64,000 nt of DNA from a virus (IMGVR_UViG_3300021963_000042:1-64000); one strand, 5' to 3'; positions 1,183 to 64,000 are shown, numbered from the stretch's first letter. The notes: generated from the sequence alone by a model not told the origin. Translations and numbers: made by a program.

Positions 1183-1775
1183 TATAACTCCAAATTAGTC
1201 AACTTATTAACATCGCCAAGCGATCCACGATAAAACGAATTAAACGCCAAAGAAACTCTGGCTTCATTATTCTTATTGGTATTGACTCCGTGCAACATAT
1301 GTGATGGGAACAATACAATCATATTTTGTTTAACATTGATAGGCATGTGGTCAAGATTAAACTTAGTCTGCTTAGTTATCTTGGGTTTGATACCGTAAGA
1401 TTTATCCTTAAAGAAAATTATCTGACTCGGATCTTTACTAATATAAACTACTCCGCTGATGATACTATTGTCATGGCAGTGTGTATGATGTGATGTATTT
1501 TTATCGTTAAAGTTTATCCAAGACTGAGTAACCTCAAGAGTAACACCTTCTGCTCCAATGATATTGATTAGATATTCTTGGAGGTGTTTATTAACCTGCG
1601 CCTTCAAAGATGACAATTCAGGTTTATCCAAAACAAAATTATCATTAGATGTTGCATTACCATACACATTCGGGTAGGTTTCAGTTTTAATGCTCTGTAT
1701 ATAAGCAAGCTCGTGAAACTGAAACTCTACCGTTGATTGGTAAAGTGGCGTTGGAAATAAACCGAAGACGTTCAC
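1182..1775 (-). CDS. 2OG-Fe(II) oxygenase (TIGR02466/PF13759-like)
   Basis: 197 aa. HTHCHD...SGVVYI...HMLHGV...RVSLAFN, i.e. HxD/H/RxS double-stranded beta-helix motifs. Paralogue of 7033-7653, 20188-20859 and 57505-58155. Confidence 0.6.
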   Translation of the reverse strand: MNVFGLFPTPLYQSTVEFQFHELAYIQSIKTETYPNVYGNATSNDNFVLDKPELSSLKAQVNKHLQEYLINIIGAEGVTLEVTQSWINFNDKNTSHHTHCHDNSIISGVVYISKDPSQIIFFKDKSYGIKPKITKQTKFNLDHMPINVKQNMIVLFPSHMLHGVNTNKNNEARVSLAFNSFYRGSLGDVNKLTNLEL

Positions 1776-3070: not shown

Positions 3071-3079
3071 ACATTTCTC

Positions 3080-4477
3080 CTAAAATTTGAAACCGCTAAA
3101 ACCTTCATCACTATGTATGCGTTTTCCAAAATCACTTTTATCAAACATCGGTCCTTCGTCTTTACTTCCAGAGTCAGCAAGAGTTTGGGCAGATGCTTCA
3201 ACATCATATAGTTTCATTTTAGCTCTGTCAACACCAATAACAAATCGCTTATAATAATTGGGATCATTATAACGATTCTTCAACTGCTTCACGATAATCT
3301 GATTCAGCTGTTCAAGTTCTTCGTTACTCACCAACGCAAACATAAAGTCTGCAGTCGCTGGTAAACCAAAAGATTCAGAAGTATCTTCCAGACCTGGATC
3401 TGAGTTTGTATAACCAGATCGGGTAGTTTGAGTTGCCGACATAATTGGAACATTACACTCAACAGCCAAACCACGAAGTTCTTCAGCGATTGCCTTAATA
3501 TATGTATAAGAGTTTACGCCATGCGTTTGTTTCATTCGAGAAGAAGCACAGATGTTCAGATAGTCAATAAAGATAATATCAGGAACGAACTCTCGCTTCA
3601 TCTTCAACTCTTCCAGCAGGGCACGGAAGTGACCAGCATGAGCAGACGCAGTTGGGTACTCTTTAACAATCAACTTACCTTGTGTCTTCTTAGCAATCTT
3701 TTCAAGACGAGAATCAAAGATGTCACGATCGACAACTTTCAATTCATCCATAGTCAAGTTAAGAAGGTTGGCGTCAATACGTTCAGCGATACGTTCTTCA
3801 GCCATCTCCATGGTGATGTAAAGAACATTCTTACCTTGCATCAGAACAGAAGCACCAACGTGACACATAAACAAAGACTTACCAACACCAGTACCAGCCA
3901 AAGCGATGTTCAAAGTTTTCTTTGATAGTCCACCTTTGGTAATTTTGTTGAACATATCAAGGTCGAAGCTGATCTTTTCTTCGACTCGATGATAAAATTC
4001 ATAACGAGACTCAGCATCCTCGAGATAATCATGGCCAACATGATTATCGAAAGAGACGGCAAGAGCGTCACTAAGGATGCTAGGAATTGCATCTTGCGTT
4101 CTGACTTTATCTCTACCGTCAATGATTTGGATCGAATGTAGAATCGCATTATAAACTGCCTTGTCTTTACAAAACTTTTCAGTGTTCTGAACTAACCACT
4201 CTTCATTACTTTCCTGATTAGTGAGTTGCTTAGCAAACTCTTGCATCTCGGGAACTTCTTTATCGGTAAACCCTTTTAGGTTTCCAATTTCAATCTGAAC
4301 AATCTCAGGACTAGCTGGTTTGTTGTATTGCTCGAAGAACTTAATTAACAAAGAGGCAATTGCTGCCTCTTTGCGATCTGTGAAGTATTCAGTCTTAAGG
4401 TGTGGTACAACCTTGCGACAATATTCTTCATTGTGGATCAGGTTCGATAGGATCGCCTGTTCTATTCTCATCAACAC
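3080..4477 (-). CDS. 41: replicative DNA helicase gp41 (DnaB-like)
   Basis: 465 aa. Walker A motif ALAGTGVGKS and a RecA-like core (IIFIDYL). Synteny uvsX-40-41. Confidence 0.85.
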   Translation of the reverse strand: MLMRIEQAILSNLIHNEEYCRKVVPHLKTEYFTDRKEAAIASLLIKFFEQYNKPASPEIVQIEIGNLKGFTDKEVPEMQEFAKQLTNQESNEEWLVQNTEKFCKDKAVYNAILHSIQIIDGRDKVRTQDAIPSILSDALAVSFDNHVGHDYLEDAESRYEFYHRVEEKISFDLDMFNKITKGGLSKKTLNIALAGTGVGKSLFMCHVGASVLMQGKNVLYITMEMAEERIAERIDANLLNLTMDELKVVDRDIFDSRLEKIAKKTQGKLIVKEYPTASAHAGHFRALLEELKMKREFVPDIIFIDYLNICASSRMKQTHGVNSYTYIKAIAEELRGLAVECNVPIMSATQTTRSGYTNSDPGLEDTSESFGLPATADFMFALVSNEELEQLNQIIVKQLKNRYNDPNYYKRFVIGVDRAKMKLYDVEASAQTLADSGSKDEGPMFDKSDFGKRIHSDEGFSGFKF

Positions 4478-4754
4478 CGCCTGTATATGTTAAACTATTT
4501 TTCTCAATACCTTCATGGATCAATTCAGTAAGAATGTCACCAATATAATTTTCAAAGGGTTTAACATCAGTTAAAACCTTATCGTTGTAGTCAAGGATTT
4601 CATACTCGAAGTGAATACCCAATTTATCATTGGCTTCATCTTCACTGAAAGAAACCTTTCCGTACACATAAATTATACCCGCAAATGGTTCTTCTGTCAA
4701 CTTTATCGCATCGAAGAAACCATTGCGGTGTTCAACAACTACGTAGGGTTTCAT
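4428..4754 (-). CDS. hypothetical protein (gene-40 position)
   Basis: 108-aa ORF between uvsX and 41. No recognisable motifs. Confidence 0.3.
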   Translation of the reverse strand: MKPYVVVEHRNGFFDAIKLTEEPFAGIIYVYGKVSFSEDEANDKLGIHFEYEILDYNDKVLTDVKPFENYIGDILTELIHEGIEKNSLTYTGGVDENRTGDPIEPDPQ

Positions 4755-5818
4755 TCGTAGTCAACTTCTGCAAGTTCTGCACTGATATCTTCATCACTCA
4801 AGATAGAATCAGTAGAAACCATATACTTGTTCTTGATGAAATCGTAGAAAGACTTTTGCGTCAACAAAGGCATCCAGAAATCTTTGCTATCTGTATCTTT
4901 GATACGCCACTTCTTTTCTTCCACAACACCAGTCTCAAGATCTACTTTCGAATACCAACCATTGCTAGGCTTGATAACATGTCCTGATTCGAGTGCAATA
5001 TCAAGTAGACCGCTCCACTTGCTGATACCACCATTAAAAGAAACAGCGACAGGGATTTTAGATTTTTCTTTAACATATCTTGATTTTTCTACGTTGATAA
5101 TGAAGTTATAACCGACTACTTCAGTACCTTCTTTTTCTTGTTGACGACCCAAGATAAAAATATTGTCAGCTGAGTAATAAGAGCCAGTACCACCACCAAC
5201 GATGTCTTTAGGATACAAACCAATTTCTTTGTAGGTGTGGTTAACAACTACCATTGGGATATCCTTCAGAGTCAGGTGAGGTGTGACCATACGGAATAGG
5301 GATTTCATCTGTTTAGCACGAGACATATCGGCAACAGATTTACCATCAAGTGCATCCTCAACTTCTTTCTTAGAAGCAAGGTTACCGATGGAGTCAATAA
5401 CAATCATCACTCGCTCGCCACGTTCAATGTTCTGCAGCTGTTGCATAATATCAAACTTGAGTTGTTCAACGTCTGTGATTGGAGTGTGAAGAACACGATC
5501 CGTATCAATACCGAAGCTATCGAAGTAACTCTGTGGCGTACCAAACTCAGAGTCATAAAATAGCAGAGCAGCATCTGGATACTTGTCCAGATAAGACTTT
5601 GCCATCAGCAAACTGAAAGCAGTCTTAAAGTGCTTTGATGGACCAGCCCACATTGTGAGTCCAGGAACCAAACCACCATCCAAGCGACCACTCAATGCTA
5701 CGTTGATGATAGGGATGCTAGTTGGAATCATATCCTTCTTAGCGAAGAACTTTGACTGCGCAAGAATAGCGGAATCTTTGATCGTGCTATTCTTTTTAAT
5801 TTTATCAAGAATACTCAT
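4751..5818 (-). CDS. uvsX: UvsX RecA-like recombinase
   Basis: 355 aa. GLTMWAGPSKHFKT Walker A motif on a RecA fold. T4-like position. Confidence 0.85.
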   Translation of the reverse strand: MSILDKIKKNSTIKDSAILAQSKFFAKKDMIPTSIPIINVALSGRLDGGLVPGLTMWAGPSKHFKTAFSLLMAKSYLDKYPDAALLFYDSEFGTPQSYFDSFGIDTDRVLHTPITDVEQLKFDIMQQLQNIERGERVMIVIDSIGNLASKKEVEDALDGKSVADMSRAKQMKSLFRMVTPHLTLKDIPMVVVNHTYKEIGLYPKDIVGGGTGSYYSADNIFILGRQQEKEGTEVVGYNFIINVEKSRYVKEKSKIPVAVSFNGGISKWSGLLDIALESGHVIKPSNGWYSKVDLETGVVEEKKWRIKDTDSKDFWMPLLTQKSFYDFIKNKYMVSTDSILSDEDISAELAEVDYE

Positions 5819-5826
5819 AATGTTCC

Positions 5827-6183
5827 TTAAATAGATTTATATAATGCAGATTGTGCAACAAAGTTTTGTTTCCAACCCCACTCGTCAAGAACCAACTGGT
5901 TGAAAATATGTTCTTCGATATCGATGACATCTTCAACAGACAACTCAAGCATACGGATCGCACGATTGTAGTTGTCCTCATATGACTGCGGTGCTTGAGG
6001 CATAGCACGGAACTTAAACAGATTGAGGTCTGCGCTCTTTGCTTTCTTAAGATTCTCTTGTGCGACTTTTAACACAGCACCTTTGTAGTCTTCAACAGAC
6101 TCATTATAATCAATCACATGCTTCTTAGCATTTTCTTTAACAATCTTAAGAAGCTCTTTACGATTCATTTTTACACTGTTCAT
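5827..6183 (-). CDS. hypothetical protein
   Basis: Track ORF 5827-6228 was trimmed to the ATG at 6183, which has an AAGGAA SD and avoids overlap with the thioredoxin gene. Confidence 0.35.
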   Translation of the reverse strand: MNSVKMNRKELLKIVKENAKKHVIDYNESVEDYKGAVLKVAQENLKKAKSADLNLFKFRAMPQAPQSYEDNYNRAIRMLELSVEDVIDIEEHIFNQLVLDEWGWKQNFVAQSALYKSI

Positions 6184-6208
6184 AACATTCCTTTTCAAAT
6201 CAAGCATT

Positions 6209-6460
6209 TCAAACATCCAAAAATTCAAGTAGTTGGGCTTCGTTCATCATACCAACCTTACGATTCTTTTCCGTATTATTTTCGTCAAGAAGAATCATGG
6301 TTGGGACGCCACGAACTCCATATTCCATAGCAACATTGCTATACTGGTCAATATCAATTTCCTCGATAGGAACTGTAATTTTGTCTGATGCGCCTTCAAT
6401 AACTTTAGAAAGCATTTTGCATGGACCACACCAGCTTGCAGAAAACTTTAGAACTTTCAT
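6209..6460 (-). CDS. thioredoxin
   Basis: 83 aa with a WCGPC active site. Confidence 0.75.
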   Translation of the reverse strand: MKVLKFSASWCGPCKMLSKVIEGASDKITVPIEEIDIDQYSNVAMEYGVRGVPTMILLDENNTEKNRKVGMMNEAQLLEFLDV

Positions 6461-6472
6461 TTTATACTCCTA

Positions 6473-7036
6473 TTATACACTATTTTGATTTATCTGTAAA
6501 TTTTTTGTTGGAACATCAAACACAAAAGTAATGCGAACGCAATCACCAATGTTGTCAGTTCCATGTTCAAGTTTATTGTTAAACCAGAGTAACGTCCCTG
6601 GCTCAACATCATAATGTTCATCGCCTACATAATATCTATACCTTCCCTGTATAGACAGATGATAACGATCTCTTGTTTGATAGTAGTCGCCAATATCAAT
6701 GTGTTTGCCAACCTTTCCACCAACAGGAAGTGACAAGAAACCGCAACGAGAAAACTTGCCAAAGTTTCTCTTCATAAACCCAATAACTTCTGTGTGATGT
6801 TTGCAAGCTGGAGTTGGAATGCAAATCTCTGTGTCTCCGACGTATTGATCAAGCGATTCTACGCCACCCATAACAAGTTGTAGAACACCTGCTTCTACTT
6901 CTGGGAAACCACGATCTAACATAGACATCGCACCATCAACCTGTCTCTGTGAACCCCAATCTTCTGGATGTGCTTGTAACTGTTTCAGTATCTTAGAAAC
7001 ATTCAATCCAGTTTTGATGATGCGTATATTCTTCAT
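6473..7036 (-). CDS. cupin / 2OG-Fe(II) oxygenase-like (Asp/Asn beta-hydroxylase-like)
   Basis: 187 aa. GKHIDIGDY (HxD), LEHGTDN (H) and RITFVFDV (R). Confidence 0.45.
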   Translation of the reverse strand: MKNIRIIKTGLNVSKILKQLQAHPEDWGSQRQVDGAMSMLDRGFPEVEAGVLQLVMGGVESLDQYVGDTEICIPTPACKHHTEVIGFMKRNFGKFSRCGFLSLPVGGKVGKHIDIGDYYQTRDRYHLSIQGRYRYYVGDEHYDVEPGTLLWFNNKLEHGTDNIGDCVRITFVFDVPTKNLQINQNSV

Positions 7037-7653
7037 TTAATGTTTACTATTGACATGTCGTTACCAAGTTCACCACGAAGGAACACATTGAAAGACAGCG
7101 AGTATCTGGTTTTATCTGATGTATTCGGTTCGACTTTATGTAGAATATGTGATGGGAAGATCAAAATATCATTATCATATGGGTAGTGTGCCCACGATGG
7201 CGAGTTAAACAAATTTAGGTTTGAATATTCTACACGGATAGCTGGTGGAAAGATATTTGATGGCGAACCAATATCAAACACAATCTCTCCTGTTGTTTCG
7301 TCTGTTTGAATATAAACGACGCCAGACAAAAGAGAATTGTCATGTCTATGTAGTTGAGCAGCATCACCCTTCTCATGTTTCACAACCCAAGAGTTAGTTA
7401 TGTAAAACTCAATGTGAGGTGCTACAGACAACCCATTATAAACATAACGATCGAGGGCAGACTTGATCTTCTGTTTTAAAGAAGCAAAGTCTTCTCTGTC
7501 CAATACAAACTTATCAGCAGAGTACTTCCCATCATATATCAAGGAAGTTACTCTACTCAACTCATCTGATGTGATGGGTTCAATCTTTGATTGATAGATT
7601 GGTGTAGAAAATAATGGGACGATGTTATCCAAAGAAGTCCTCCAGAGATGCAT
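7033..7653 (-). CDS. 2OG-Fe(II) oxygenase (TIGR02466-like paralogue)
   Basis: HRHDNS...SGVVYI...HILHKV...RYSLSFNV. Track ORF extends to 7731. Internal Met start chosen to match the paralogue N-terminus (LFSTPIYQS). Overlaps the 3' end of gene 43. Confidence 0.55.
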   Translation of the reverse strand: MHLWRTSLDNIVPLFSTPIYQSKIEPITSDELSRVTSLIYDGKYSADKFVLDREDFASLKQKIKSALDRYVYNGLSVAPHIEFYITNSWVVKHEKGDAAQLHRHDNSLLSGVVYIQTDETTGEIVFDIGSPSNIFPPAIRVEYSNLNLFNSPSWAHYPYDNDILIFPSHILHKVEPNTSDKTRYSLSFNVFLRGELGNDMSIVNIK

Positions 7654-10111
7654 GTTCTTCCACCTTCCAGCCCAGTGGTTGAATAACAGTTTGAAGCGCA
7701 TCAAGGAAAGTCTTTTCAAACTGCAACTCATAATCTATGTATTCTTCCAAACCAAACTCTTTCGGTAGCACTTGCGGGAATGCAATCACATCTTCATTGA
7801 ATGGGTTTGGCTTCTTCACATACACAAACTTAATCTTCTCACCCTCTTTAATCAGCTGATACTTCTTGTCAAGACCAAGACGTTTAACGTGGTGATTGAA
7901 CAACAAAGAACCACGAACGTGGATAGGTGTACCCTTACCATAGATTGGGGAACCAGCATACTGGCGTAAACCATTTACACCACGAGGGAATGCTATTTCT
8001 TGGACAGGTAACGAGTTGAATTCTGCACGAAACTTTTCAATGAAGGAATGTAGTTTCGCTTGATCTCCCTCGAGAATAACTTCGATCGAACTCTTAAGTT
8101 TGTCACGAATAACAGCAGGTGTACTCGACTTGACCATCTCCAAGCCCATAACTTTGAGTTTAGGTTTCGCATACTGCACTCCCTCAGAATTGTGCACGTT
8201 CAGAATATATCGTTTCTTGGCAGTCCAGATACCCTTGTCAGCCAGAACCTCTCGCTTCATCTGCATCTTCTGAGAATATGCATTCATGTAGTCAGCAAGT
8301 TCTTGATAGCCTTTGTCGATGAAAGGTTGGATAACATCCTCGCAGATTTTATCCATGGTCTTGATCTTCTGTTCAGTAGTCTTACCTTCACAGATCTTCT
8401 CAATCAAAGTTTCAAGAGTCAGATAAATTGAGTCGGTATCGATGGCGATAACGAAGTCTTTACCTTCTGTCTTCAGAGTTTTGTTGAGGAATGCATTCAG
8501 CTTGTTAGCCATCCAACGAATAGACAACTGACCAGAAGTGGTAATACCTTCAGCCATACGGATATCGAAGTAACGGAAGTACTGGTTACCCATCGCACCA
8601 TAAGCAGAGTTTAGCGCAATCTTCATAGCCATCTGCAGGTTGTTCAATCGGCTAATCTCCTTCAGCAAGTGCTTCTGAGACTTGTCGTTCTGATATTCCT
8701 GCTCGACTTTCAACATCTGCTTCTTGAATTTGCTTCGGTCGACATACATCTTTTCCATCAACTCAGGCATAAACCCTTTGATGTCTTTGCGATATGTCCA
8801 ACCATTCGCAGTAACAGTCAAGTCCCTGCGCTTAGCATATGATGTGTCAACTTCTTGGTTCAACAACTTATCGACAGTACAAGAAATCTTTTCGCTGTTC
8901 AAAGTCTCTGGAGAAATGTTATACTGCATAATCAAGTGAGGATACAGACTGTTCAAGTCGAAGGAAGCAACCCACTTGTGTTGACCAATGATCGGGTCTT
9001 TAACAAACGCACCTTCAAATTGTTCGTTCTTGCTGGAGCCACTCTTCATAGGAATAACGATGTTCTTCTTACGCAGGTGGTTATAGATGATAGCATCCCA
9101 CATGCGAACCTGAGAGAACACGTCTTCGTAGTTAATCTTGGCGTTATATGCCATGGTCAGACACAACTCAATCAGTCGCATCTTGTCTTCCAGTTTGTCA
9201 ACCAACTCTACGTCGTGAATGTTATATTCAACGAACTGTTGCCAGTGGTTGGTATAGAAGTCTTTGAAGGTATCTCCAGGATTTTCTTTCTTCGCATCAC
9301 CTAGTTCTTCGCCAGCGATGTAATCGAGACGATATGATTCTTGCTTGGTATAAGTGAACTTCTTATACAAGTCAAGATAGTCTAGTTGTGAGATACCGTG
9401 AATGTCGAAAGAGATTTCTTCATTACCTTGAATGAAGATCTTGCGTTCGTTGATATAACCCCATGGCGAAAGTTTCGTAGCGATGGTTTCACCCAACTCT
9501 CGTTGAATGCGTTTCACCAAATATGGGATATCGAAGAAGCCAATGTTCCAACCTGTGACAACATCTGGATAGTTCTGCGACCACCAGATAATAAACTCTT
9601 TCAGAAGATGTTGTTCGTCTTTACAGTGCATGTAAATGACATCATCACGATTGTGAACAAACGCACGTGAACCGAAAGTGATTACACGTTTAGATTGAAG
9701 ATCTTTAACAGTGATTAGGAGAACCTCTTCGTTCGCCGAACGGATGTCAGGGAAACCAGATTCAGTTGCAGTCTCAATGTCGATGGTGAAGACTTTAATA
9801 TGTTCCATATCCCAGCGAATGTCACTCTCATAAGTGTCGCTAAGATATTGGCAGATATAATTGGTGTTACCGTAGATGTTGAAACCAGACACGTTCTCGT
9901 ATTGCTTAACGAACTCACGTGTCTCTTTAACAGTTCCAGGCTTGACTTCATCAACGCACTGACCATCGAGTGTGCGCCAATTACTTTCCTTCTTAGAGGA
10001 ACAGTAAAGGGTTGGGAAGAAATCTATTTTACGATTGAAGGGTCGTCCATTATCATACCCTCGGACAAACATTTTGTTACCAAAGGGAAAGACGTGGGTG
10101 TAAAATTGCAT
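7625..10111 (-). CDS. 43: DNA polymerase gp43 (family B)
   Basis: 828 aa. Exo motifs, motif A DLNSLYPH and motif C AIDTDS. C-terminus ends SLEDFFG. Confidence 0.9.
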   Translation of the reverse strand: MQFYTHVFPFGNKMFVRGYDNGRPFNRKIDFFPTLYCSSKKESNWRTLDGQCVDEVKPGTVKETREFVKQYENVSGFNIYGNTNYICQYLSDTYESDIRWDMEHIKVFTIDIETATESGFPDIRSANEEVLLITVKDLQSKRVITFGSRAFVHNRDDVIYMHCKDEQHLLKEFIIWWSQNYPDVVTGWNIGFFDIPYLVKRIQRELGETIATKLSPWGYINERKIFIQGNEEISFDIHGISQLDYLDLYKKFTYTKQESYRLDYIAGEELGDAKKENPGDTFKDFYTNHWQQFVEYNIHDVELVDKLEDKMRLIELCLTMAYNAKINYEDVFSQVRMWDAIIYNHLRKKNIVIPMKSGSSKNEQFEGAFVKDPIIGQHKWVASFDLNSLYPHLIMQYNISPETLNSEKISCTVDKLLNQEVDTSYAKRRDLTVTANGWTYRKDIKGFMPELMEKMYVDRSKFKKQMLKVEQEYQNDKSQKHLLKEISRLNNLQMAMKIALNSAYGAMGNQYFRYFDIRMAEGITTSGQLSIRWMANKLNAFLNKTLKTEGKDFVIAIDTDSIYLTLETLIEKICEGKTTEQKIKTMDKICEDVIQPFIDKGYQELADYMNAYSQKMQMKREVLADKGIWTAKKRYILNVHNSEGVQYAKPKLKVMGLEMVKSSTPAVIRDKLKSSIEVILEGDQAKLHSFIEKFRAEFNSLPVQEIAFPRGVNGLRQYAGSPIYGKGTPIHVRGSLLFNHHVKRLGLDKKYQLIKEGEKIKFVYVKKPNPFNEDVIAFPQVLPKEFGLEEYIDYELQFEKTFLDALQTVIQPLGWKVEEHASLEDFFG

Positions 10112-20187: not shown

Positions 20188-20859
20188 TTACGTCTTATTA
20201 AAATTCTTATTATTTGGGAACAATGTGGTAGTGTCTTTAATTGCAAAATTAAAAGTCATACACATTCTATCTTCCTGAGACAGATTCTTTGTGACAAAAT
20301 GCATCAAGCTCCCTGGGAAAATCAACATCAAATTTTCTTTAGCATCAATTTGATGGAATACCTCAGTGAACCTGTTACGATCAACAAAGTATTTTGGGGC
20401 ATAGTTCCAGCATCTTGTATTATCGCCATGCTGGAAAACAATGTTACCAGAATCAGGTGGAACCTTAAAATAATATACAGCTACAATCGTGGTGCCAGGA
20501 TGCACATGTGAGAACACGACATCGTCTGGTCCATTAATGTTATACCAGCAGCCATTCAAAACTAAGCTACAAGATTCTTTAGCTCCAAGTTCTCGAATGC
20601 ATTGGCTGGCATTTTCTGTAGCAAGCGCAACAATCTTTTCTAATGCAGAATTAGATTTAATCTGCGCTTTAGACAGTAAGTAGCTAATCCACTTTAGACC
20701 AGCAGACCTAGCCTCACCAATATAATTGTTTGGGTTTCGGTTTGCTGTGTCAATTTCATACAGGGAGTTTGCATGATCAACCAGTCTGGCAGTATCGACA
20801 TCATCAATATCGAAAGACCAAACTGGTGTGACAAACAAGTCAACCCTGTTCATAATCAA
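20188..20859 (-). CDS. 2OG-Fe(II) oxygenase-like (TIGR02466-like paralogue)
   Basis: 223 aa. LFVTPVWSF N-terminus as in the paralogues. HVHPG...VAVYYF...LMHFV...RMCMTFNF. Confidence 0.5.
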   Translation of the reverse strand: MIMNRVDLFVTPVWSFDIDDVDTARLVDHANSLYEIDTANRNPNNYIGEARSAGLKWISYLLSKAQIKSNSALEKIVALATENASQCIRELGAKESCSLVLNGCWYNINGPDDVVFSHVHPGTTIVAVYYFKVPPDSGNIVFQHGDNTRCWNYAPKYFVDRNRFTEVFHQIDAKENLMLIFPGSLMHFVTKNLSQEDRMCMTFNFAIKDTTTLFPNNKNFNKT

Positions 20860-38956: not shown

Positions 38957-38999
38957 CGGGTTCTCCTAACTGGAATAGTTCTATGTAATTATTTATTAT

Positions 39000-39656
39000 T
39001 TATCTGATTTTACTCAGGAAATTTTGGAAAGCGACTAATTTCGCTTCTTGTAAATGCTTTGAAGGAGCTTTTCTAATAATAGCTTTAGCTTCTTCAATAT
39101 GTTTTTCCACAAACTTTCCATCGACAAATACCCATTCTTTATTCTCCATAATCCCACGAACGTAGGCATCTGGAGCAGAAGGGTCGGCAACGATGTCAGC
39201 TGCAGTAGACAGCATAAAATCGTCTTGAACAATTTGGACGCCTTCTTTATTCATCTGAAGAGATCCAAGTGCTCGACTAGAAACACCAAGGTTTGCGCCA
39301 CCGTCTAATAGACCACGTGCAATATTACCCATTGGAGTTTCAAGAATTTTTGCCTTACCAATATAATTTGTACCTTCTTTGCGAAGGTCAACGATAAGAT
39401 GAGAAACACGATCTAAGTTAATAGAAGGTGTATCTGGATGACCAAGTTCACCGTAAGCACGATTCTGCTTAACGTATGATTCCATGTAACGACCGACTTC
39501 CTTGTCCATGATACTTTCTTTGTACATGCGGTTGTTGCGGTTTGTAATTTCTGATTGAAGGAAGATACCTTCAATAAAATATTGTTTACCCTTACCTAGT
39601 TTATCTTCAACGATGAACTTGGTTTCGTGGGTTAAGTCTTCTCTAATGAGTTTCAT
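39000..39656 (-). CDS. 21: prohead core protease gp21
   Basis: 218 aa with GELGHPDTP and Ser motifs. Located between 20 and 22. Confidence 0.7.
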   Translation of the reverse strand: MKLIREDLTHETKFIVEDKLGKGKQYFIEGIFLQSEITNRNNRMYKESIMDKEVGRYMESYVKQNRAYGELGHPDTPSINLDRVSHLIVDLRKEGTNYIGKAKILETPMGNIARGLLDGGANLGVSSRALGSLQMNKEGVQIVQDDFMLSTAADIVADPSAPDAYVRGIMENKEWVFVDGKFVEKHIEEAKAIIRKAPSKHLQEAKLVAFQNFLSKIR

Positions 39657-45109: not shown

Positions 45110-45194
45110 TGTTATTCTCCTTAATTACATGTTATTCTGTGTTTTGCTTCGAGGAGCAATTGAAAGCACTAAATTATTTATTGAAAACACGATT

Positions 45195-57408: not shown

Positions 57409-57504
57409 GAATTCCCCAAAATTGTATTTCTCAACAGTTATTTATGTTATTTCAGATCGCTAAATATAACAGCTGCGAAGCGAATTTAACCTTATGGAGA
57501 TAAT

Positions 57505-58155
57505 ATGGAAGATCAAAATCAAACCAACTTACCTTCGCCATTAGTCGGCGATGCACCAACAGAAGACTATAACTTCGAATATTCACCAGTCGAAGAAACT
57601 TTTCAAAGACGTCTTTTCCCAACAATTTTCGCAAGCTATAAATTTGCAGATTGGGAAAAAATTGCCCAACCTCTGATCAATCTATCGAATGGATGGAATG
57701 TTCCAGATGAAGATCATGGCAAAGATATTATGGAATTAGATCATCCTGCAGTCAATAGACTGAAAGAAATCGTCTATGAGATCTGCGAAGGTCTTGAGTT
57801 ATCAAAAGACGACAATGGTAGAACACCAGTTATTGTAGGTTCAAATACATTGTTCCAACAAAAGGGCGAACACATTCCACCACATAACTACGAGTTCTCT
57901 ACTTTAGTATTCTCGTTCGTGGCGAATGTTGGGGAAAATGGTCCAATGACATACTTCCCAGATCCACGTGGTGGCGTACAAGCCTTGCGTAAAATTGTTT
58001 CTCAAAATCTAGTTAGCACAAGTTTCGGCATTAAGAGTCGCATTGGAGAAATCTATGTAACTCCAGGTTATGCTCAGCGTTACATCGAAACTAACTTAGA
58101 ATCAGAAACCCACGTAATCGTAAACGTCCGTGTTAACTTTGTTATGATTAGTTAA
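57505..58155 (+). CDS. divergent 2OG-Fe(II) oxygenase-like protein (TIGR02466-like)
   Basis: The only plus-strand gene, with a GGAG SD. RLFPTIFAS resembles the paralogue N-terminus. HIPPHNYEFSTLVFSFV and VNVRVNF fall at equivalent motif positions. Confidence 0.4.
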   Translation: MEDQNQTNLPSPLVGDAPTEDYNFEYSPVEETFQRRLFPTIFASYKFADWEKIAQPLINLSNGWNVPDEDHGKDIMELDHPAVNRLKEIVYEICEGLELSKDDNGRTPVIVGSNTLFQQKGEHIPPHNYEFSTLVFSFVANVGENGPMTYFPDPRGGVQALRKIVSQNLVSTSFGIKSRIGEIYVTPGYAQRYIETNLESETHVIVNVRVNFVMIS

Positions 58156-59205
58156 TATTTTCTTATTAACATAGAAGACTGAATAGTCTTCCAACAAAAA
58201 CAGCCAAGGTGCAATGGGATTTCCTAACGAGGAAATCCCTTTTGGCTTGTTCCACGCATAATAGCTATCCCCACTATATTCCTCAATTAGTTCTCGCATA
58301 ACCCATCTGTGGGTTAGTGGTTTACCCACATCTTTAGTGAATGGCTCTTTAGTCGTTAAAACATATTTCTGAAAGTCGTCAGTATTAAAGAAATGGTACT
58401 GATTGTTTTGTTGTTTGGTTGCAATTCTGGTAGAATACTCAGCTGTATACCAATCGAAATTAAAGATTAACCACCAACGCAAATCCCTAAGTGTCTCGAT
58501 TTTCTTTGGGCTGGCTTTAATAGAAGGCAGCAGGAATTCGTGCAACTCATCGTTTATGCATTTGGTGTAATCAATTAATGGGTCGTCATTATTAAATTGG
58601 TGATGGAAAAACGAAACCTCAGTTTTAACCTTTCCAGTAGTAAAATCGTCTACTGGACCAAATAACTGGTTTCCAAAAAACCCTGTTACAAAAATACTAT
58701 TAGAGTCACCATCATCAAAATCTCTAGTAGAAGAAACTTTAAATTTATACTTCACGCCTGAGTTTTTAATGCAATTATCAAATAGAGAACCCGATTCTAA
58801 AATAGAACTATATGTTCCATAAACTGTAATTTGACTGGGGTCGTCTACTTGTTGCATTAGAGAGAATAACGCCAGAGTGCTGTCAATACCACCACTCCAC
58901 ACTACAGTTATGGGTTTATCTAATTCTACCAATTCTTTCGTTCTTTCCTCAACACACTGTCTGAACGACTTATTAAAAGTAGAATCTATCAGTGGTATTT
59001 GCAAAAGACCAGGCTTAATATTCAAATAGTGTGGAGTCTGTCCAGTTCTATCGTAAACTGAATTCAAATTGAGTTTATGCTTATCGAAGAATGCATAAAG
59101 TTCTTTATGATTTGGAGCAAGATATTCATCTATATTTTCTTGCCTTTTGTTGATCAAGTCCAATGATTTAATCAAATTGATATTGTAGTATAATAACTGT
59201 TTCAT
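58102..59205 (-). CDS. PP-loop ATP pyrophosphatase (AsnB/ExsB-like)
   Basis: 367 aa. VVWSGGIDSTLALFSL (SGGxDS) at about residue 100. The 3' end overlaps the convergent plus-strand gene. Confidence 0.55.
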   Translation of the reverse strand: MKQLLYYNINLIKSLDLINKRQENIDEYLAPNHKELYAFFDKHKLNLNSVYDRTGQTPHYLNIKPGLLQIPLIDSTFNKSFRQCVEERTKELVELDKPITVVWSGGIDSTLALFSLMQQVDDPSQITVYGTYSSILESGSLFDNCIKNSGVKYKFKVSSTRDFDDGDSNSIFVTGFFGNQLFGPVDDFTTGKVKTEVSFFHHQFNNDDPLIDYTKCINDELHEFLLPSIKASPKKIETLRDLRWWLIFNFDWYTAEYSTRIATKQQNNQYHFFNTDDFQKYVLTTKEPFTKDVGKPLTHRWVMRELIEEYSGDSYYAWNKPKGISSLGNPIAPWLFLLEDYSVFYVNKKILTNHNKVNTDVYDYVGF

Positions 59206-59213
59206 AATTTCCT

Positions 59214-59242
59214 CAAAAACAAAAAAGGGAGCCTGAGCTCCC
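59214..59242 (-). terminator. intrinsic terminator (bidirectional hairpin)
   Basis: AAAAAA-GGGAGC-CTGA-GCTCCC-TTTTATTT. Near-copy of the gp23 terminator hairpin. Confidence 0.5.
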
Positions 59243-59266
59243 TTTTATTTAGACACTAAAATTTAA

Positions 59267-60214
59267 TTAGTGTAACTGAATCTTCTGAACCAAACCTGGA
59301 GTGAAGTAGTCAGCAAACTTCTCATATACTTTAGAAGTAACAGCTTTGAACTTGCTTTCTTCTTCAGCAGACATCTTAACAACTTCAACACCCTTTGCTT
59401 CACACTCAGCCAAAATCTCTGGAATGTTAGCAACAGATTCACGACGCTCTTTGCGAGCAGCGTTGAAAGCAGCAGTAGCCATGATCTCTTGAGTTTCAGC
59501 GTCAAACTGTTTCATGAAGTCTTGGTTAACGATGATAGAAGTCAAGAACAAGCTATGAGCAGTGTCGTTAACAACTTTGAAAGATTCGTTCTGGTTTAGT
59601 GGGAAAATACGTACGTATGTAGATTCACCAGCAGAGATAACACCAGCGTCAGCTGCTTCGTTCATTTCTTCAAGAGCGATGTCCTTGTTTGGAACTGCGC
59701 CAAGAAGTTTGAAAGTCTCAACAGCAACTGGGCTGCGAGAAGTGCGAACAGATTGACCTTCCCAAGCTGCAACAGTGTCAGCACGGAAGTTTGCTGGAAC
59801 TACACGGTAGCCACCAGAGTAAGTGAAAGACATAGCCTTGATATTGCTATTCTTAGAAACGCCAGCTAGCAACTCAGTACCAATCTCGCCTTCTAGAACA
59901 CGATCAGCATGGGCGTGATCTTGGAACAAGAAAGGAAGGTCTAGAGCGTGTAGGTCTTGATTATAGTCAGCCAACCAAGTAGTATAGATGTGGCTCATTT
60001 CGATAGCACCAGAATCAACCAACTGCATTAGTTCATTCTTAGTGATTTTCTTACCATCATTATACTTTGCAGAGTAGTCAGACAAAGAAAGAACTTCGAT
60101 GTCGAACATACCACCAGTTTGCTCATTTACTTCTTTAGAGAAGGACTCGGCTACTTTCAAAAATAGACCGATAGGCTCGTGGGCAATAACCCATTTAACA
60201 TGCTTCTTTTGCAT
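59267..60214 (-). CDS. DctP-type (TRAP) solute-binding protein homologue, no signal peptide
   Basis: 315 aa. KWVIAHEP, LDLPFLFQDHAHADRVLEGEIGTELL, YSGGYRV (conserved Arg) and GQSVRTSRSPVAVETFKLLGAVP align to DctP/SiaP. Confidence 0.7.
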   Translation of the reverse strand: MQKKHVKWVIAHEPIGLFLKVAESFSKEVNEQTGGMFDIEVLSLSDYSAKYNDGKKITKNELMQLVDSGAIEMSHIYTTWLADYNQDLHALDLPFLFQDHAHADRVLEGEIGTELLAGVSKNSNIKAMSFTYSGGYRVVPANFRADTVAAWEGQSVRTSRSPVAVETFKLLGAVPNKDIALEEMNEAADAGVISAGESTYVRIFPLNQNESFKVVNDTAHSLFLTSIIVNQDFMKQFDAETQEIMATAAFNAARKERRESVANIPEILAECEAKGVEVVKMSAEEESKFKAVTSKVYEKFADYFTPGLVQKIQLH

Positions 60215-60227
60215 TTATATCTCCTTG

Positions 60228-60554
60228 TTATTTTCTTAAATACTTAAGATGTTCAGCGCATCTAAGATCTAGTTTCCATTTTTCACCTTCAGCCGTAACC
60301 TCTAATACAATAATTGGTAGGTTCAGTCTGATGATTCTTTCCTTATATTTATAAACGAATTCTTTCTCTTCTTGCGATGCCTCGATTATAAAGTCGGGAA
60401 TCTGTATACTGAAGTTGTTATTCTGGAATTTGTTTTCTAAAGAATTGTGATAGAAAATATCAGCTAGTGTTCTTCGATTATAATTTGATACTGCAGTTCC
60501 ATATCTTGGATACCTATTGATATTCCATATGTTGCAGTCTAAAAATCCACTCAT
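60228..60554 (-). CDS. hypothetical protein
   Basis: 108-aa ORF within the cassette. Confidence 0.3.
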   Translation of the reverse strand: MSGFLDCNIWNINRYPRYGTAVSNYNRRTLADIFYHNSLENKFQNNNFSIQIPDFIIEASQEEKEFVYKYKERIIRLNLPIIVLEVTAEGEKWKLDLRCAEHLKYLRK

Positions 60555-60555
60555 T

Positions 60556-62019
60556 TTATTTAGGTTCTACTGGAACTTGGACTACTGGAATATTCAAAGG
60601 TTTGCGGACTTTCCAACTCTTTTTTCCAGTCTTCATATATTCGTTGTCGATTACCTGAATGCTAGTAACACCATCGAAACGAATTCGATCACCTTTAATC
60701 TCTGTCAAAACCAGACCATCAGTCATCTTGAATAGAGCAGCGCTCAACATCGCTAGGTTATACCAGAATAGGTTTTCGCAAGCCTGCTCCCAGTATTGAT
60801 CTTCTAAGAACAAACAAGCACCCTGACATAACTGTACAACTGGACAAGAAGGGCATTCTTTACGAGTAGACCAATGATAAGAGTTCGTTAGACGAATGTT
60901 ATCAAAATCTTCGATGTTTCCAATATTATGCTTGGTTAAGGAAGAAGTATTCTGACACGTAGTAACATTACCCTTCATATCGATGGCAATATTGTCTTCC
61001 TTATCCATACCACACTTTTGACCAACAGCTTCAGCTGGACGACCATAGACGATAGACTCAAAGAATGACTTGACCTTCTGATAGATAGTCCAACTAAATT
61101 GGTTCTTATTATCGATGGTTTCTTCAAATAAAGTATGAAGGATTTCTTTCTTCTCGTCTGTGGTTTGGAGAGAGTGAGTCATACCAGAGTCATCATATGG
61201 CAACATTAATTCTTCTGTAGTAACTTGAATTTCACGCTGGTCGACTCCAGGATTTTCAAATCCGACGTGTTTCTTATTGAGTTTATCCATAATAAAATTA
61301 CGGACAGAAGGAATAGAAACATTCTCACGTGTAAGAACACAGTTGAAAGTGAAACGTGTCAACCCCATAGTTTTCATAGCATAAACAACAGCGTCTTTTG
61401 CTACAGGTTCATCTAATGGATCTGGTCCACGATTCTGCGCATGCAGTGGTCCATCATGAGACATACCGATAGAAAACCCCATACGATTAAACCAATCAAC
61501 TTTTTCTCTAGTTAAAAGAGAACCATTGGTAACCATCATGAAACTAGCATTAGGGTAAACCTTCTTGATCTTTTCAGCAAGAGGTTTCAGTGTTTTCCAG
61601 TAAACCATCGGCTCACCACCCCAAAACTCAAGACGGAATTTATCATATGTTCCAAAGTTGAAATTCTCTTTCATCTTTTGGATCAATTCTTCCGCATCTT
61701 CTGGACCACCTACTGGGTCGTGTGGTTGGTGCGCTTGGTTACAGTAAGAGCATGCGTAGTTACACTTAAGACCCATCGTGATCTTAAGCGTAGTTGGCTT
61801 ACGGGATTTCTTACCGTGGAGTGCAGGATCGTGTGGGTTTGTAATATTTGCAGGTTCCCACACCTTTGCATTCATTTGATATTGAAGACCCTTACTCACA
61901 TGCTCGAGCGAGGGTCTTTCGTGCGTTTCTTCCCAATACATTTCAGATGTCATTGGGTCGTAAACCATATTAACTTTCACATCATTAGCCCCTTGTAGGA
62001 CTAGCGTAAATTTGCTCAT
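60556..62019 (-). CDS. radical SAM enzyme with C-terminal SPASM domain
   Basis: 487 aa. CNYACSYC (CX3CX2C) and C-terminal CPSCPVVQLCQGAC (CX2CX5CX3C). Confidence 0.7.
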   Translation of the reverse strand: MSKFTLVLQGANDVKVNMVYDPMTSEMYWEETHERPSLEHVSKGLQYQMNAKVWEPANITNPHDPALHGKKSRKPTTLKITMGLKCNYACSYCNQAHQPHDPVGGPEDAEELIQKMKENFNFGTYDKFRLEFWGGEPMVYWKTLKPLAEKIKKVYPNASFMMVTNGSLLTREKVDWFNRMGFSIGMSHDGPLHAQNRGPDPLDEPVAKDAVVYAMKTMGLTRFTFNCVLTRENVSIPSVRNFIMDKLNKKHVGFENPGVDQREIQVTTEELMLPYDDSGMTHSLQTTDEKKEILHTLFEETIDNKNQFSWTIYQKVKSFFESIVYGRPAEAVGQKCGMDKEDNIAIDMKGNVTTCQNTSSLTKHNIGNIEDFDNIRLTNSYHWSTRKECPSCPVVQLCQGACLFLEDQYWEQACENLFWYNLAMLSAALFKMTDGLVLTEIKGDRIRFDGVTSIQVIDNEYMKTGKKSWKVRKPLNIPVVQVPVEPK

Positions 62020-62057
62020 TAAAAATCCTTATAATATAGAACGGATAATATATTTAG

Positions 62058-63212
62058 TTACGCAATTTCAACCCAAAGTTCTGCCCAAGAAACGAATTTA
62101 CCAATGTTTAACTTAACCTTAAAGTAATCGCCAGTAGTTAAGCCGACAGTAGAAATTAATAGATTCTCACAGCCAGAATGTAATGTTGTCAATCTGTCTG
62201 TAGGATAGTTATGTGTATCTAGAAATTCTTGGGTAGCAGCATTAGGAGCTTCTGGATCGTATATATTAGAAACACGTGTCTTATTTGAAATACAGTTGAT
62301 GCATTCTACATCAAAGGTAGCAGCTGCTCTGGAACCAAGTATTGTATGCAATCTACTTCCGAAAATAACCTTAACATTATATGTATCAGAAGCTGGCAAT
62401 GTTACTTTAAATCTATTGCCAGAAGTAGGAGCAGCAGTTGCAGGTAAACCAAGTGAAGTGTCAATACCTTCAACAACTATTTCTTTTTGCTGTTGTAGTT
62501 CGACATATCCTGTAGATTTTGAAGTAGGTTTTACAAACTGCGTTAGAGCAGAAGTTAAGACTTTACCTTCAGAATCTAAAACTTCAAACGTCGCCAAAGT
62601 TTTCACATAAAAATTACACCAAATTTCATACTCTCTTTGAGTAACTTCAGTAACTTCAGCTGGAGTATTTTCAATAATACTGTCTAATACATTCACTTGC
62701 AAATCTTCAATGAAGAACATCAAAGTAGAACCAGTGAAACCAGAAAGTTCTTTATAGAAAGAATCTAAAACGAACAATGGTGTTTTCGTTGAATTAGACT
62801 GATAGCGATATTTGTTTAGATTGTAAAATAATTTTACATGAGAATCACTACCATTGATGTATTCTGTAGCAATATCATAAACATCGATTGGGTCGCTAAT
62901 AGTTCCTGTCTCTGAGTCGAACTCAACGATCCACTTGTAGTTATCCGTTTTCATTCTGAAGTCATCAGCAGTGAACGCACGTTCAGCTACAATACGAAAA
63001 TCAGCTGTTTCATGAACATCACGTTTTTCGTCAGGTGTATCTTCAGGTTTTGCTTCGTCTAGATCTGGATTTGCAGGAACAACTTCTTCCATTTTAACAT
63101 GGATAGTTTGTGTAGCAGCATCAAAGCGCATTGTGGCTCTGTGTTTGCTATCTCTTTCATAGACTTCTGTACCTTCGTTTGGTCTAATTACAGTTTTGAA
63201 AATTTTTAACAT
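62058..63212 (-). CDS. hypothetical protein
   Basis: 384-aa ORF between the Cys-repeat gene and the rSAM gene. Confidence 0.3.
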   Translation of the reverse strand: MLKIFKTVIRPNEGTEVYERDSKHRATMRFDAATQTIHVKMEEVVPANPDLDEAKPEDTPDEKRDVHETADFRIVAERAFTADDFRMKTDNYKWIVEFDSETGTISDPIDVYDIATEYINGSDSHVKLFYNLNKYRYQSNSTKTPLFVLDSFYKELSGFTGSTLMFFIEDLQVNVLDSIIENTPAEVTEVTQREYEIWCNFYVKTLATFEVLDSEGKVLTSALTQFVKPTSKSTGYVELQQQKEIVVEGIDTSLGLPATAAPTSGNRFKVTLPASDTYNVKVIFGSRLHTILGSRAAATFDVECINCISNKTRVSNIYDPEAPNAATQEFLDTHNYPTDRLTTLHSGCENLLISTVGLTTGDYFKVKLNIGKFVSWAELWVEIA

Positions 63213-63225
63213 TATGGTTCCTCAA

Positions 63226-63600
63226 TTAGCAGTTGCAAGCGCAGTTACAGTTACAGTTGCAAGCACAGTTACAGTTGCAATTAGATCTGTACCACTGGAA
63301 ACCGCCCATCGTATTATCTTGGTTGTCGTGACGGATACCATCAGTAGAAGCGTTAATAGCTCCACCAACAGAAGTGTTACGGAAAATATTGATACGTCTG
63401 TCAGTAGTAACACCGAAACCTAAGTCACCAGCATCACAGTTACCGCAGTTACAGTTAGCTCCGTTACATGCGCAGTTCCATGCGCAGTTAGCGTTTGGCT
63501 CTGTATAGGTTCTGTTGCCTGCGTCATAATAATTCCAAAATAAGTCTACAACGTCTGTGCCATCAGCACGTCTGTGTCCTGTTGCTCCGTGATAAGCCAT
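63226..63600 (-). CDS. Cys/Asn-repeat protein (RiPP-precursor-like or metal-binding fibre accessory)
   Basis: 124 aa, 15 Cys. NANCAWNCACNGANCNCGNCD internally and the C-terminal tail NCNCNCACNCNCNCACNC-stop. Lies 3 nt downstream of a fibre gene. Confidence 0.5.
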   Translation of the reverse strand: MAYHGATGHRRADGTDVVDLFWNYYDAGNRTYTEPNANCAWNCACNGANCNCGNCDAGDLGFGVTTDRRINIFRNTSVGGAINASTDGIRHDNQDNTMGGFQWYRSNCNCNCACNCNCNCACNC

Positions 63601-63602: not shown

Positions 63603-64000
63603 TTATTTCTCCAATTTCTCTAAACGAGTAGTTAATTCTTTAATAGTTTGTTGCTGTTCTTTAACTGCTTCGATAAGTAAACCGACAAGGTTTCCGTAAG
63701 CAACAGACTTAAACCCGTCTTGGTTCGTTTCAACAACTTGTGGAACAAAATCTTCGACTTCCTGGGCGATAACACCGATTCTAGGTTTTCCGTCTTGAGT
63801 ATAAGATACACCACGTAAATTACAAACTGTATTGACTGGACTATTTAGTGTTTGAATGTTCTGTTTCAAGCGCATATCAGACGCTTGAGTGAATGTTGTT
63901 GCAACGATAGCGTTAAAAGTATTTGTAGTTCCAGCCCAAGTGTTATTCGCTGCTAAAGAAGGTACGTCTGTACCGCAATCTAAAGTTGGGTTTCCGTCCT
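63603..64000 (-). CDS. tail fibre protein, C-terminal part (continues beyond the window)
   Basis: The frame stays open to the window edge. C-terminal S74-type chaperone LKQNIQTL...IGVIAQEVEDFVPQVV resembles the end of 49167-53414. Confidence 0.6.
   Translation of the reverse strand, partial: DGNPTLDCGTDVPSLAANNTWAGTTNTFNAIVATTFTQASDMRLKQNIQTLNSPVNTVCNLRGVSYTQDGKPRIGVIAQEVEDFVPQVVETNQDGFKSVAYGNLVGLLIEAVKEQQQTIKELTTRLEKLEK

Follow-up and report, generated by a model that had tools for sequence, protein, structure and literature searches.

Gene organisation of the locus

This work concerns six genes in the tail fibre region of a viral genome fragment, IMGVR_UViG_3300021963_000042:1-64000, which was analysed at its full length of 64,000 nucleotides and is called the window below. 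The six open reading frames (ORFs) lie on the minus strand, co-directional and tightly packed, from 63600 down to 58102, and the ORF listing of the window gives them exactly as a first-pass annotation of the same DNA had described them (Table 1). From 5' to 3' they encode a protein ending in an Asn-Cys repeat (the NC-tail protein), a protein that we call X, a radical S-adenosylmethionine (SAM) enzyme with a SPASM domain (rSAM), a small protein (p108), a DctP-like solute-binding protein and a PP-loop enzyme, and a gene for a probable 2-oxoglutarate (2OG)-Fe(II) oxygenase converges on the last of them. The genes are separated by gaps of 13, 38, 1, 13 and 61 nt, the 61 nt preceding the PP-loop gene. 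Directly upstream, the first-pass annotation had placed a fibre gene bearing a chaperone, and a Peptidase_S74 domain is indeed found there by Pfam. In the relative L003 (loci are designated by such numbers), the full S74 fibre gene (7204-8400) encodes 398 aa, with S74 at 7.3e-13. Because the gene gaps are of 1-38 nt only, they indicate a single predicted operon reaching from the S74 fibre gene through the DctP gene. The content of the block is unlike the T4 fibre-assembly proteins gp38 and gp57A, as had been noticed before, no such PHROG, Pfam or NCBIfam match being obtained for any of the six proteins. The 124-aa, 384-aa and 108-aa proteins had no Pfam, NCBIfam or PHROG match of any kind.

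Table 1. Features of the locus, in window positions
Feature	Position	Strand	Description
Upstream short-fibre gene, 3' end	63603..64000, runs off the window	-	C-terminal Peptidase_S74 intramolecular-chaperone domain (Pfam PF13884, 4.5e-11)
NC-tail protein, predicted substrate	63226..63600	-	124 aa (translation)
Protein X	62058..63212	-	384 aa, all-beta, multi-Ig-like or beta-sandwich, hypervariable loops
Radical SAM/SPASM enzyme, predicted maturase	60556..62019	-	487 aa
p108	60228..60554	-	108 aa, obligate partner of the PP-loop enzyme in an accessory sub-module
DctP-family (TRAP-type) solute-binding protein	59267..60214	-	315 aa
Terminator-like hairpin	59213..59246 (stem 59246-59223)	-	AAAAGGGAGC-TCAG-GCTCCCTTTT followed by a T-run, between DctP stop and PP-loop start
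PP-loop ATP-pyrophosphatase	58102..59205	-	367 aa, AsnB/beta-lactam-synthetase-type synthetase domain
Probable 2OG-Fe(II) oxygenase, convergent with the PP-loop gene	57505..58155	+	216 aa

The radical SAM/SPASM enzyme and its candidate substrate

The 487-aa protein matches the Pfam Radical_SAM domain (PF04055, 9.6e-11, 42.6 bits for a cut-off of 29.5) and the SPASM model TIGR04085 (2.5e-9, 37.4 bits for a cut-off of 27), and it belongs to phrog_1802 (3e-63). The cysteines of its CX3CX2C motif (C86, C90 and C93) are invariant in 23 diverse homologues, and the seven-Cys SPASM motif (..C..C..CX2CX5CX3C..C) is complete, with C336, C355, C389, C392, C398, C402 and C414 invariant as well. The best NCBIfam models are those of the crosslinking maturases PapB, DynA, geopeptide, CcpM, anSME and QhpD, and among PDB sequences 8vpo, CteB (5wgg) and anSME (4k37) come closest. 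These matches bear out the rSAM/SPASM assignment made in the first-pass annotation, and a QueE- or MoaA-type enzyme was ruled out by the models that score best. No NxxcB model was among the best 25 of the 56 NCBIfam matches, and no direct comparison with NxxcB was made.

The translation of the first gene ends in NCNCNCACNCNCNCACNC and carries an internal Cys/Asn patch, NANCAWNCACNGANCNCGNCD, which confirms the Cys/Asn-repeat protein reported earlier. The tail consists of 18 residues, (xC)9, encoded at 63229-63282, and the internal patch lies at about 63430-63492. In an alignment of 13 distinct clade members all Cys are invariant, the tail length is constant at nine units and only three x positions vary, among N, A and D. 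Over 113 distinct phage tails of 3-10 units, Cys is again invariant and x is N in 73%, A in 12.6%, D in 8.7% and Q in 1.2%, these four residues making up 95% of the x positions. Usually an aromatic residue stands a few residues upstream of the run (e.g. WYRSNC, RYNC, QYNC, YYNC). The proteins that bear such tails measure 67-616 aa across loci, and in most other phages they are of fibre size, 200-616 aa.

The grammar of these tails fits a thioether synthase, because Cys is invariant, x is N, A, D or Q, and N-x-x-C motifs overlap along the run. Indeed, NxxcB forms a Cys-to-Asn beta-thioether and is strict for Cys, with Asn, Ala, Gln or Asp as the acceptor (PMC9389541). From the sequences at hand we consider, with moderate confidence, that the locus holds a tail-fibre maturation module in which the rSAM enzyme would put Cys-to-Asn thioether staples into a fibre-tip element.

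The enzyme might also carry out another radical chemistry on the tail, such as formylglycine formation, Cys-aromatic or C-C/C-N crosslinking (as in DynA and streptide) or epimerisation, the Asn residues then forming a structural ladder. Indeed, anSME, DynA and cyclophane maturases score nearly as high as the thioether maturases, the gene of Achromobacter phage JWF is annotated as an anaerobic sulfatase-maturating enzyme, and an aromatic residue usually stands ahead of the run. We nevertheless regard this as rather unlikely, since there is no C-x-[PA]-x-R sulfatase motif, since 3-10 Cys per tail as the sole invariant residue fit Cys as a repeated donor, and since the nearest solved relative, CteB, is a thioether synthase.

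The geometry of the tail would equally suit a metal site, in which the alternating Cys, placed on the axis of a trimer, coordinate a column of metal while the rSAM enzyme acts elsewhere or loads or protects the thiols. HxH repeats of T4 gp37 and gp12 and of P2 gpV bind iron. Cys at every second residue brings all thiols to one face of a beta-strand, and the tails are C-terminal on fibre proteins and of constant length within a clade. Such a site has no need of a SPASM rSAM, yet the coupling described below is near-obligate; moreover, x is strongly biased towards Asn, Ala, Asp and Gln, in keeping with the role of a carbon acceptor. SPASM auxiliary clusters ligate substrate Cys for crosslinking (PMC9389541), which also counts against simple metal binding, and we give this explanation a low probability.

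Several variations were seen around the two genes. The DNA that encodes the tail (63230-63276) is an imperfect 24-nt tandem duplication in two copies with a 95% match; its codons are mixed (AAC/AAT and TGC/TGT), yet the length of nine units is constant across the clade. Tandem paralogous small NC-tail proteins, two or three of them, precede a single X and rSAM in L124/L126 and in L040/L088/L135, the three of L124 having 92-109 aa. A second, shorter rSAM (327-362 aa) adjoins the main one in L027, L029, L030, L040, L088, L092, L093, L156, L157, L160 and L170. In L047 and L146, three or four consecutive rSAM genes follow a small protein ending in '...DDYST[AN]CNCNCNCNC[TS]RGIL', seemingly a more remote form of the system with several enzymes.

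Coupling of the rSAM enzyme and repeat tails across phages

In 148 phage, prophage and metagenome loci, the rSAM gene nearly always adjoins the gene of a fibre protein with an Asn-Cys repeat end. This near-obligate coupling was observed from both sides. When loci were collected by their rSAM gene and those with at least 4 kb of upstream DNA were counted, 75 of the 80 phage or prophage loci had a same-strand (xC)n tail or (xC)n-Hint fusion upstream, and two of the five misses were artefacts of the regular expression (the tail of RSP15, '..NTNCQCGN', and the Hint form of L187). When viral contigs were scanned instead for DNA encoding CNCNCNC, with at least 5 kb downstream required, the rSAM gene followed 22-2580 nt downstream in 19 of 19 true C-terminal tails against 0 of 21 other matches (Fisher p = 7.6e-12, which overstates the significance and is therefore an upper bound on it, the loci being phylogenetically non-independent). 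The earlier suggestion that the rSAM enzyme acts on the Cys/Asn-repeat protein in fibre maturation is thus supported by a co-occurrence that is almost without exception in both search directions.

A scan of viral contigs with the rSAM enzyme gave 25 loci, 15 of them close (rSAM 78-93% identical) and ten distant (33-39%). The 15 close contigs share, in synteny, all six genes together with the convergent 2OG gene and the fibre genes on either side, and identity to the window proteins is there 78-93% for rSAM, 77-96% for DctP, 56-84% for the PP-loop enzyme, 43-90% for the NC-tail protein, 34-73% for p108 and 25-53% for X. By this synteny the six-gene block is an inherited part of the window lineage, conserved as a unit in relatives, so that the grounds on which the first-pass annotation would have been refuted do not hold; its description as an inserted cassette is misleading, because the whole block and its flanks are shared, and a recent lineage-specific insertion was ruled out. 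In the ten distant loci the other cassette genes are mostly absent, and a same-strand upstream ORF with an (NC)n end is still there. The six genes had been taken as one functional unit, whereas the conserved core comprises three of them, and the family of the convergent 2OG oxygenase recurs with rSAM elsewhere.

The module is found well beyond T4-like phages. Ralstonia phage RSP15, classified in the Ackermannviridae, has the rSAM gene and a side tail fibre protein ending in ..NTNCQCGN, and in the Achromobacter siphophages JWF and 2-1 the fibre reads ..NCNCDCNCS with a Hint domain immediately after (Pfam 5e-12). It occurs as well in a P2-like Bradyrhizobium prophage and a GpJ-type Ralstonia pickettii prophage, and a scan of genome collections added at least 182 further bacterial contigs, mainly of Alpha- and Betaproteobacteria (among them Limnohabitans, Polynucleobacter, Ferrovibrio, Rhodospirillales and Burkholderia). 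It always lies in the fibre or baseplate region, usually in the order NC-tail, X, rSAM. Taken together, these comparisons point to a widespread and apparently undescribed phage module whose core is an (Asn-Cys)n-tail protein, X and the rSAM/SPASM enzyme.

In the Hint-fused forms, the (xC)n run stops exactly at Cys1 of the Hint domain ('...NCNCDCNCS|CFPAGT...'). This fused fibre architecture was seen in L002 (4853-6295, Achromobacter phage 2-1), in L026 (JWF) and in the prophages L180, L182, L184, L187, L192, L195, L198, L200 and L211; most loci in which a Hint domain, of the intein or Hedgehog type, is fused to (xC)n are without an X-family gene. Hint thioester chemistry might cleave or ligate the C-terminus of the tail, and since the run ends at the catalytic Cys of the Hint domain, an (xC)n C-terminus would here too be left, or activated, by autoprocessing. 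It is tempting to speculate that the Hint forms parallel the AsnB-like enzyme of the window lineage, the C-terminal carboxylate itself being processed.

Protein X and the accessory genes

Protein X is modelled as several Ig-like beta-sandwich domains in a row. Its loops are indel-rich and hypervariable, as expected for a surface or host-contact protein. An iterated profile seeded with the window X did not reach the distant X proteins, whereas a profile seeded with RSP15 ORF047 succeeded and converged on 62 ORFs in 59 loci, the window X among them (E 9e-45); by this profile X is a single family, whose members go with the NC tail and rSAM at most loci. A profile of the close X homologues matched only 23 clusters among 1.84 billion representatives, and the window-type X subfamily is therefore small and fast-evolving. 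In a viral structure library, the best structural match to X was a 271-aa protein of the same length as RSP15 ORF047.

Two clades alone have the genes of p108, DctP and the PP-loop enzyme together after rSAM, namely the window clade and a further T4-like one (L041, L048, L091, L118 and L120). In the latter, DctP is 67-90% identical to that of the window, and rSAM and the PP-loop enzyme reach only about 45%. L056 lacks DctP and has p108 and the PP-loop gene, and L025 has the PP-loop gene alone. The 22 members of p108, in 22 loci, always have the PP-loop gene alongside, and p108 and the PP-loop enzyme behave as a pair. No family or PDB sequence match was obtained for p108, and a PDB search with the PP-loop profile likewise gave nothing useful.

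The first-pass annotation had described a DctP-like protein without signal peptide, and both parts of this description stand. The protein matches Pfam PF03480 (1.2e-42, 146.7 bits) and NF037995 TRAP_S1 (104.8 bits for a cut-off of 50), and because its mature domain begins close to residue 8, a signal peptide would not fit ahead of it. The Arg of the 'xRT' motif is kept, 'SVRTSRSPV' aligning with 'KMRTMENPV' of PDB 4p9k, and the phage homologues in the gene-order table all have 314-316 aa. No DctQ, DctM or other membrane-protein genes are present in the cassette, and no close DctP homologue was found among the phage isolates of the INPHARED set. Without a signal peptide the protein cannot serve as a periplasmic transporter subunit, and a functional periplasmic auxiliary metabolic gene (AMG) was thus ruled out.

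In the PP-loop enzyme, W103-S-G-G-x-D-S109 is invariant. Its AlphaFold2 (AF2) model (pLDDT 89.8) has as top Foldseek matches carbapenam synthetase 1q19 (CarA, E 4.5e-5), human ASNS, beta-lactam synthetase and E. coli AsnB, with probability 1.0, E 4.5e-5 to 1.6e-3 and TM-scores of 0.35-0.40 to the AsnB-type enzymes. The 50 Foldseek matches listed comprise AsnB-type enzymes, then NAD synthetase, LarE and GMP synthetase; QueC and TilS are not among them, and these two identities were rejected, a 38-residue PP-loop match to the QueC-like phrog_1550 being all that was found for them. The preference for an AsnB-like PP-loop ATPase expressed earlier is therefore upheld by the invariant motif and the fold. 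The enzyme has no N-terminal Ntn glutaminase domain, only about 95 residues standing ahead of the PP-loop, and scores 15.7 bits against TIGR01536 for a cut-off of 267; none of its 135 homologues is annotated. Presence of the PP-loop gene did not correlate with Cys as the very last residue of the tail: ..NC ends were also seen in several loci that lack the gene, and L025, which has it, ends in ..CNCGG.

Terminator-like hairpin and probable 2OG oxygenase

The hairpin had been thought to close the cassette. Its actual place is after the DctP stop (59267) and ahead of the PP-loop start (59205), and this position is kept, with compensatory stem changes, in L003-L016, L041, L048, L091 and L118. A late-promoter-like CTAAATA precedes it ([A/C]TAAATA across relatives). 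The minus-strand region 59213-59262 thus brings together [A/C]TAAATA, a GC-rich hairpin, a T-run and a GAGGA Shine-Dalgarno sequence, and it may be both the terminator of the fibre operon and the 5' element of the PP-loop mRNA. Judging by this layout, the first five genes appear to be co-transcribed with the upstream fibre gene, and the PP-loop gene would be expressed through read-through or from its own late promoter. In the window as a whole, WTAAATA is depleted (15 found for 28.9 expected). Several of the seven minus-strand copies of ATAAATA stand just 5' of late genes (scaffold, sheath and a 111-aa fibre-assembly-like gene); the minus-strand sites at 38990-39003, 45175-45181 and 57439-57445 fit T4-type late promoters.

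The 2OG gene overlaps the PP-loop gene by 54 nt (58102-58155). Its product matches phrog_81, '2OG-Fe(II) oxygenase', at 1e-11 and had no Pfam match at E<=0.05; it was recovered at E 1e-46 by a local profile seeded with the Pfam-positive 2OG-FeII_Oxy_5 genes (PF13759-type) of L023. The gene is syntenic in L003-L017. Members of the 2OG family occur within 3 kb of rSAM in 94 cases, 65 of them same-strand upstream, with a profile that is fairly general. The oxygenase is a frequent fourth member of the module and probably a further tail-modifying enzyme. Within the coding sequence of the PP-loop enzyme, a terminator-like hairpin on the plus strand (58216-58239) would act for the 2OG gene. Three more 2OG paralogues lie on the minus strand of the window (1182-1775, 7033-7731 and 20188-20859; E 3e-29 to 3e-34 against the local profile); such scattered paralogues are typical of marine T4-like phages and call for caution in reading the adjacency of 2OG and rSAM genes.

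These neighbours bear on whether the product could be a free peptide. The small NC proteins might be toxin or signal precursors released at lysis, of the type of ribosomally made peptides that are modified post-translationally (RiPPs), the DctP, 2OG and PP-loop genes then being unrelated AMGs that stand by chance in a variable region. Some NC proteins, at only 59-130 aa, are indeed of RiPP-precursor size, 2OG oxygenases are many in marine T4-like phages and have their three further paralogues here, the PP-loop gene stands behind a terminator, and DctP is far better conserved across clades than its neighbours (DctP 75-96%, rSAM about 45%). Most tails, on the other hand, are carried by 200-616-aa proteins with fibre-like N-termini or by Shufflon_N and Hint architectures, and the module is situated within the tail modules of no fewer than four different phage backgrounds. 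Among the conserved neighbours we recognised neither a leader protease nor an exporter, in loci that were not scanned specifically for them. A signal-less DctP has no role in a periplasmic transporter, and p108, DctP and the PP-loop gene stand in one fixed order beside rSAM in two clades. We regard a released peptide as improbable. Of the two outcomes that the first-pass annotation had offered, a modified virion protein and a free small Cys-rich product, the latter is the less likely.

Genomic setting

Downstream of the block lie two small fibre-assembly-like genes, a 923-aa fibre and a 1415-aa fibre, and beyond the fibres T4-type neck, sheath-stabiliser, terminase, sheath, portal and scaffold genes. 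These T4-type genes agree with the placement in a tail-fibre region given in the first-pass annotation. The nearest cultured portals are those of Pelagibacter phage Mosig (57%), Methylophilales phage Melnitz (55%) and cyanomyoviruses (about 55%), and the 6-kb region had no megablast match among 50,697 phage records; a close relative in culture does not exist. By its T4-type neighbours and portal identities, we assign the window to an aquatic T4-like myovirus that is uncultured, the six genes being part of its fibre region. In L003, a 2087-aa DUF4815 protein (703-6966) is encoded two genes 5' of the NC gene, ahead of the 398-aa S74 fibre; the equivalent region of the window falls past the window end.

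Discussion

Our results are best summarised as a maturation pathway for a fibre tip, in which we infer the tail to be the substrate, the chemistry to be thioether formation and the product to be part of the virion. Late in infection, the S74 fibre, NC-tail protein, X, rSAM, p108 and DctP genes would be transcribed in this order. The rSAM enzyme would hold the Cys-rich tail through its auxiliary Fe-S clusters and take a hydrogen from the alpha or beta carbon of an adjacent Asn (or Ala, Asp or Gln), so that several thioether bridges from Cys sulphur to carbon would result. Such a staple or ladder might be compact, insensitive to redox state and resistant to proteases, and it could be made in the reducing cytoplasm. 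The stapled tail together with X would form the distal part of the fibre, and the 2OG-Fe(II) oxygenase would probably add a further modification, e.g. hydroxylation. In the T4-like lineage, p108, the cytoplasmic DctP-like carboxylate binder and the AsnB-like enzyme might provide an ATP-dependent carboxylate activation, which could mean amidation or ligation, possibly at the C-terminal Cys. More tentatively, we suggest that many tailed phages of Proteobacteria could build the distal fibre tip from (Asn-Cys)n, turned by an rSAM/SPASM enzyme into a ladder of thioether crosslinks, often with the help of 2OG oxygenases and, in some lineages, of an AsnB-like ligase and a cytoplasmic DctP-like binder.

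Several points weigh against this pathway. The scores of the rSAM enzyme fall far below the equivalog cut-offs of the NCBIfam models (in bits, PapB 76.6 for a cut-off of 340, DynA 72.1 for 450, CcpM 62.7 for 500, anSME 62.4 for 349, QhpD 61.5 for 453 and SCIFF 44.5 for 425), and its chemistry is therefore not transferable by homology; the enzyme may instead oxidise Cys in the manner of anSME or form C-C/C-N crosslinks. No RRE domain was recognisable. Protein X has no diagnostic fold beyond its Ig-like sandwiches and could be a chaperone or an adaptor instead of a part of the fibre. The p108-DctP-PP-loop trio is absent from most loci, including the T4-like relative L062 and every prophage locus; these genes are therefore optional accessories, whose proposed link to the tail rests on fixed adjacency only, and the terminator sets the PP-loop gene apart from the others. 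In addition to the non-independence of the loci mentioned above, the ORFs in relatives were called with a simple script.

Known systems offer close parallels to a thioether-forming fibre module. The streptococcal RaS-RiPP pair NxxcB/NxxcA also sets an rSAM/SPASM-type enzyme beside an N-x-x-C substrate, NCNC being an overlapping NxxC, and the set of acceptor residues of NxxcB is the one that fills 95% of the x positions of phage tails. The phage substrate, in contrast, is a C-terminal repeat of 3-10 units on fibre-module proteins of up to 616 aa and not a short quorum-regulated peptide; no Rgg/SHP context is present in the phages, and the phage chemistry is inferred. QhpD (with its substrate QhpC), PapB and CteB are SPASM rSAMs that install several Cys-to-Asp, -Glu or -Thr thioethers and are among the best-scoring models; CteB is, 8vpo apart, the closest solved structure to the phage rSAM by sequence, and QhpC sets a precedent for a protein subunit, not a secreted peptide, as substrate. 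Unlike the QhpD, PapB and SCIFF systems, the phage module has (NC)n in place of CX3D and similar motifs, a viral structural setting, and X and 2OG partners.

Parallels exist on the virion side too. The HxH tips of T4 gp37, T4 gp12 and P2 gpV and the S74 chaperones stabilise or nucleate the C-terminal distal end of trimeric fibres; in the HxH tips, too, the motif residue alternates so that its side chains share one face, and here an S74 fibre stands directly upstream. The phage tails differ in having Cys instead of His, an obligate radical enzyme, and a link that is proposed to be covalent and not coordinative. With AsnB, beta-lactam synthetase, carbapenam synthetase and the lasso cyclases, the PP-loop enzyme shares the SGGxDS PP-loop and the fold of the synthetase domain, and with the lasso cyclases also a peptide-maturation context with a small partner protein; unlike them, it has no glutaminase domain, and no lasso B protease or recognisable RRE accompanies it. 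The DctP-like protein passes the Pfam and NCBIfam TRAP_S1 thresholds and keeps the 'xRT' Arg of TRAP DctP proteins, yet it lacks a signal peptide and DctQ/M partners and sits in a phage fibre operon between p108 and the PP-loop gene. We found no description in the literature of the (NC)n tail, of the function of phrog_1802 or of rSAM modification of phage fibres, the papers that had seemed pertinent proving unrelated, and entries in databases are labelled 'hypothetical', 'radical SAM domain-containing' or, on homology alone, 'anaerobic sulfatase-maturating enzyme'. What is known is the enzyme class and the logic of a Cys-rich substrate beside a SPASM rSAM. New are its use on fibre proteins of the virion, a repeat as substrate, X as partner, and the AsnB-like and DctP accessories.

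If the fibre maturation proposed here is correct, it would be the first post-translational modification of the radical-SAM RiPP type on a structural protein of the virion, and fibre stability or receptor binding would be achieved by a new, covalent route. Virion assembly, known to use HK97 isopeptide chainmail, S74 chaperones and HxH iron sites, would gain a covalent modification as a further tool, and a function would be given to PHROG 1802, annotated only as radical SAM domain-containing, and to its unannotated neighbour families. The (NC)n tail would also be a simple, repetitive natural substrate for multi-site thioether formation. For the engineering of fibres and tailocins, a swapped receptor-binding module may need its maturase. 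Since Ralstonia phage RSP15 and Achromobacter phages JWF and 2-1 are culturable carriers, the idea is directly testable. The families of the module are present in well over 100 phage, prophage and metagenome loci from freshwater, marine, soil and clinical Proteobacteria, and RiPP-style radical chemistry, beyond its role in secreted peptides, would finish the receptor-binding organelles of phages.

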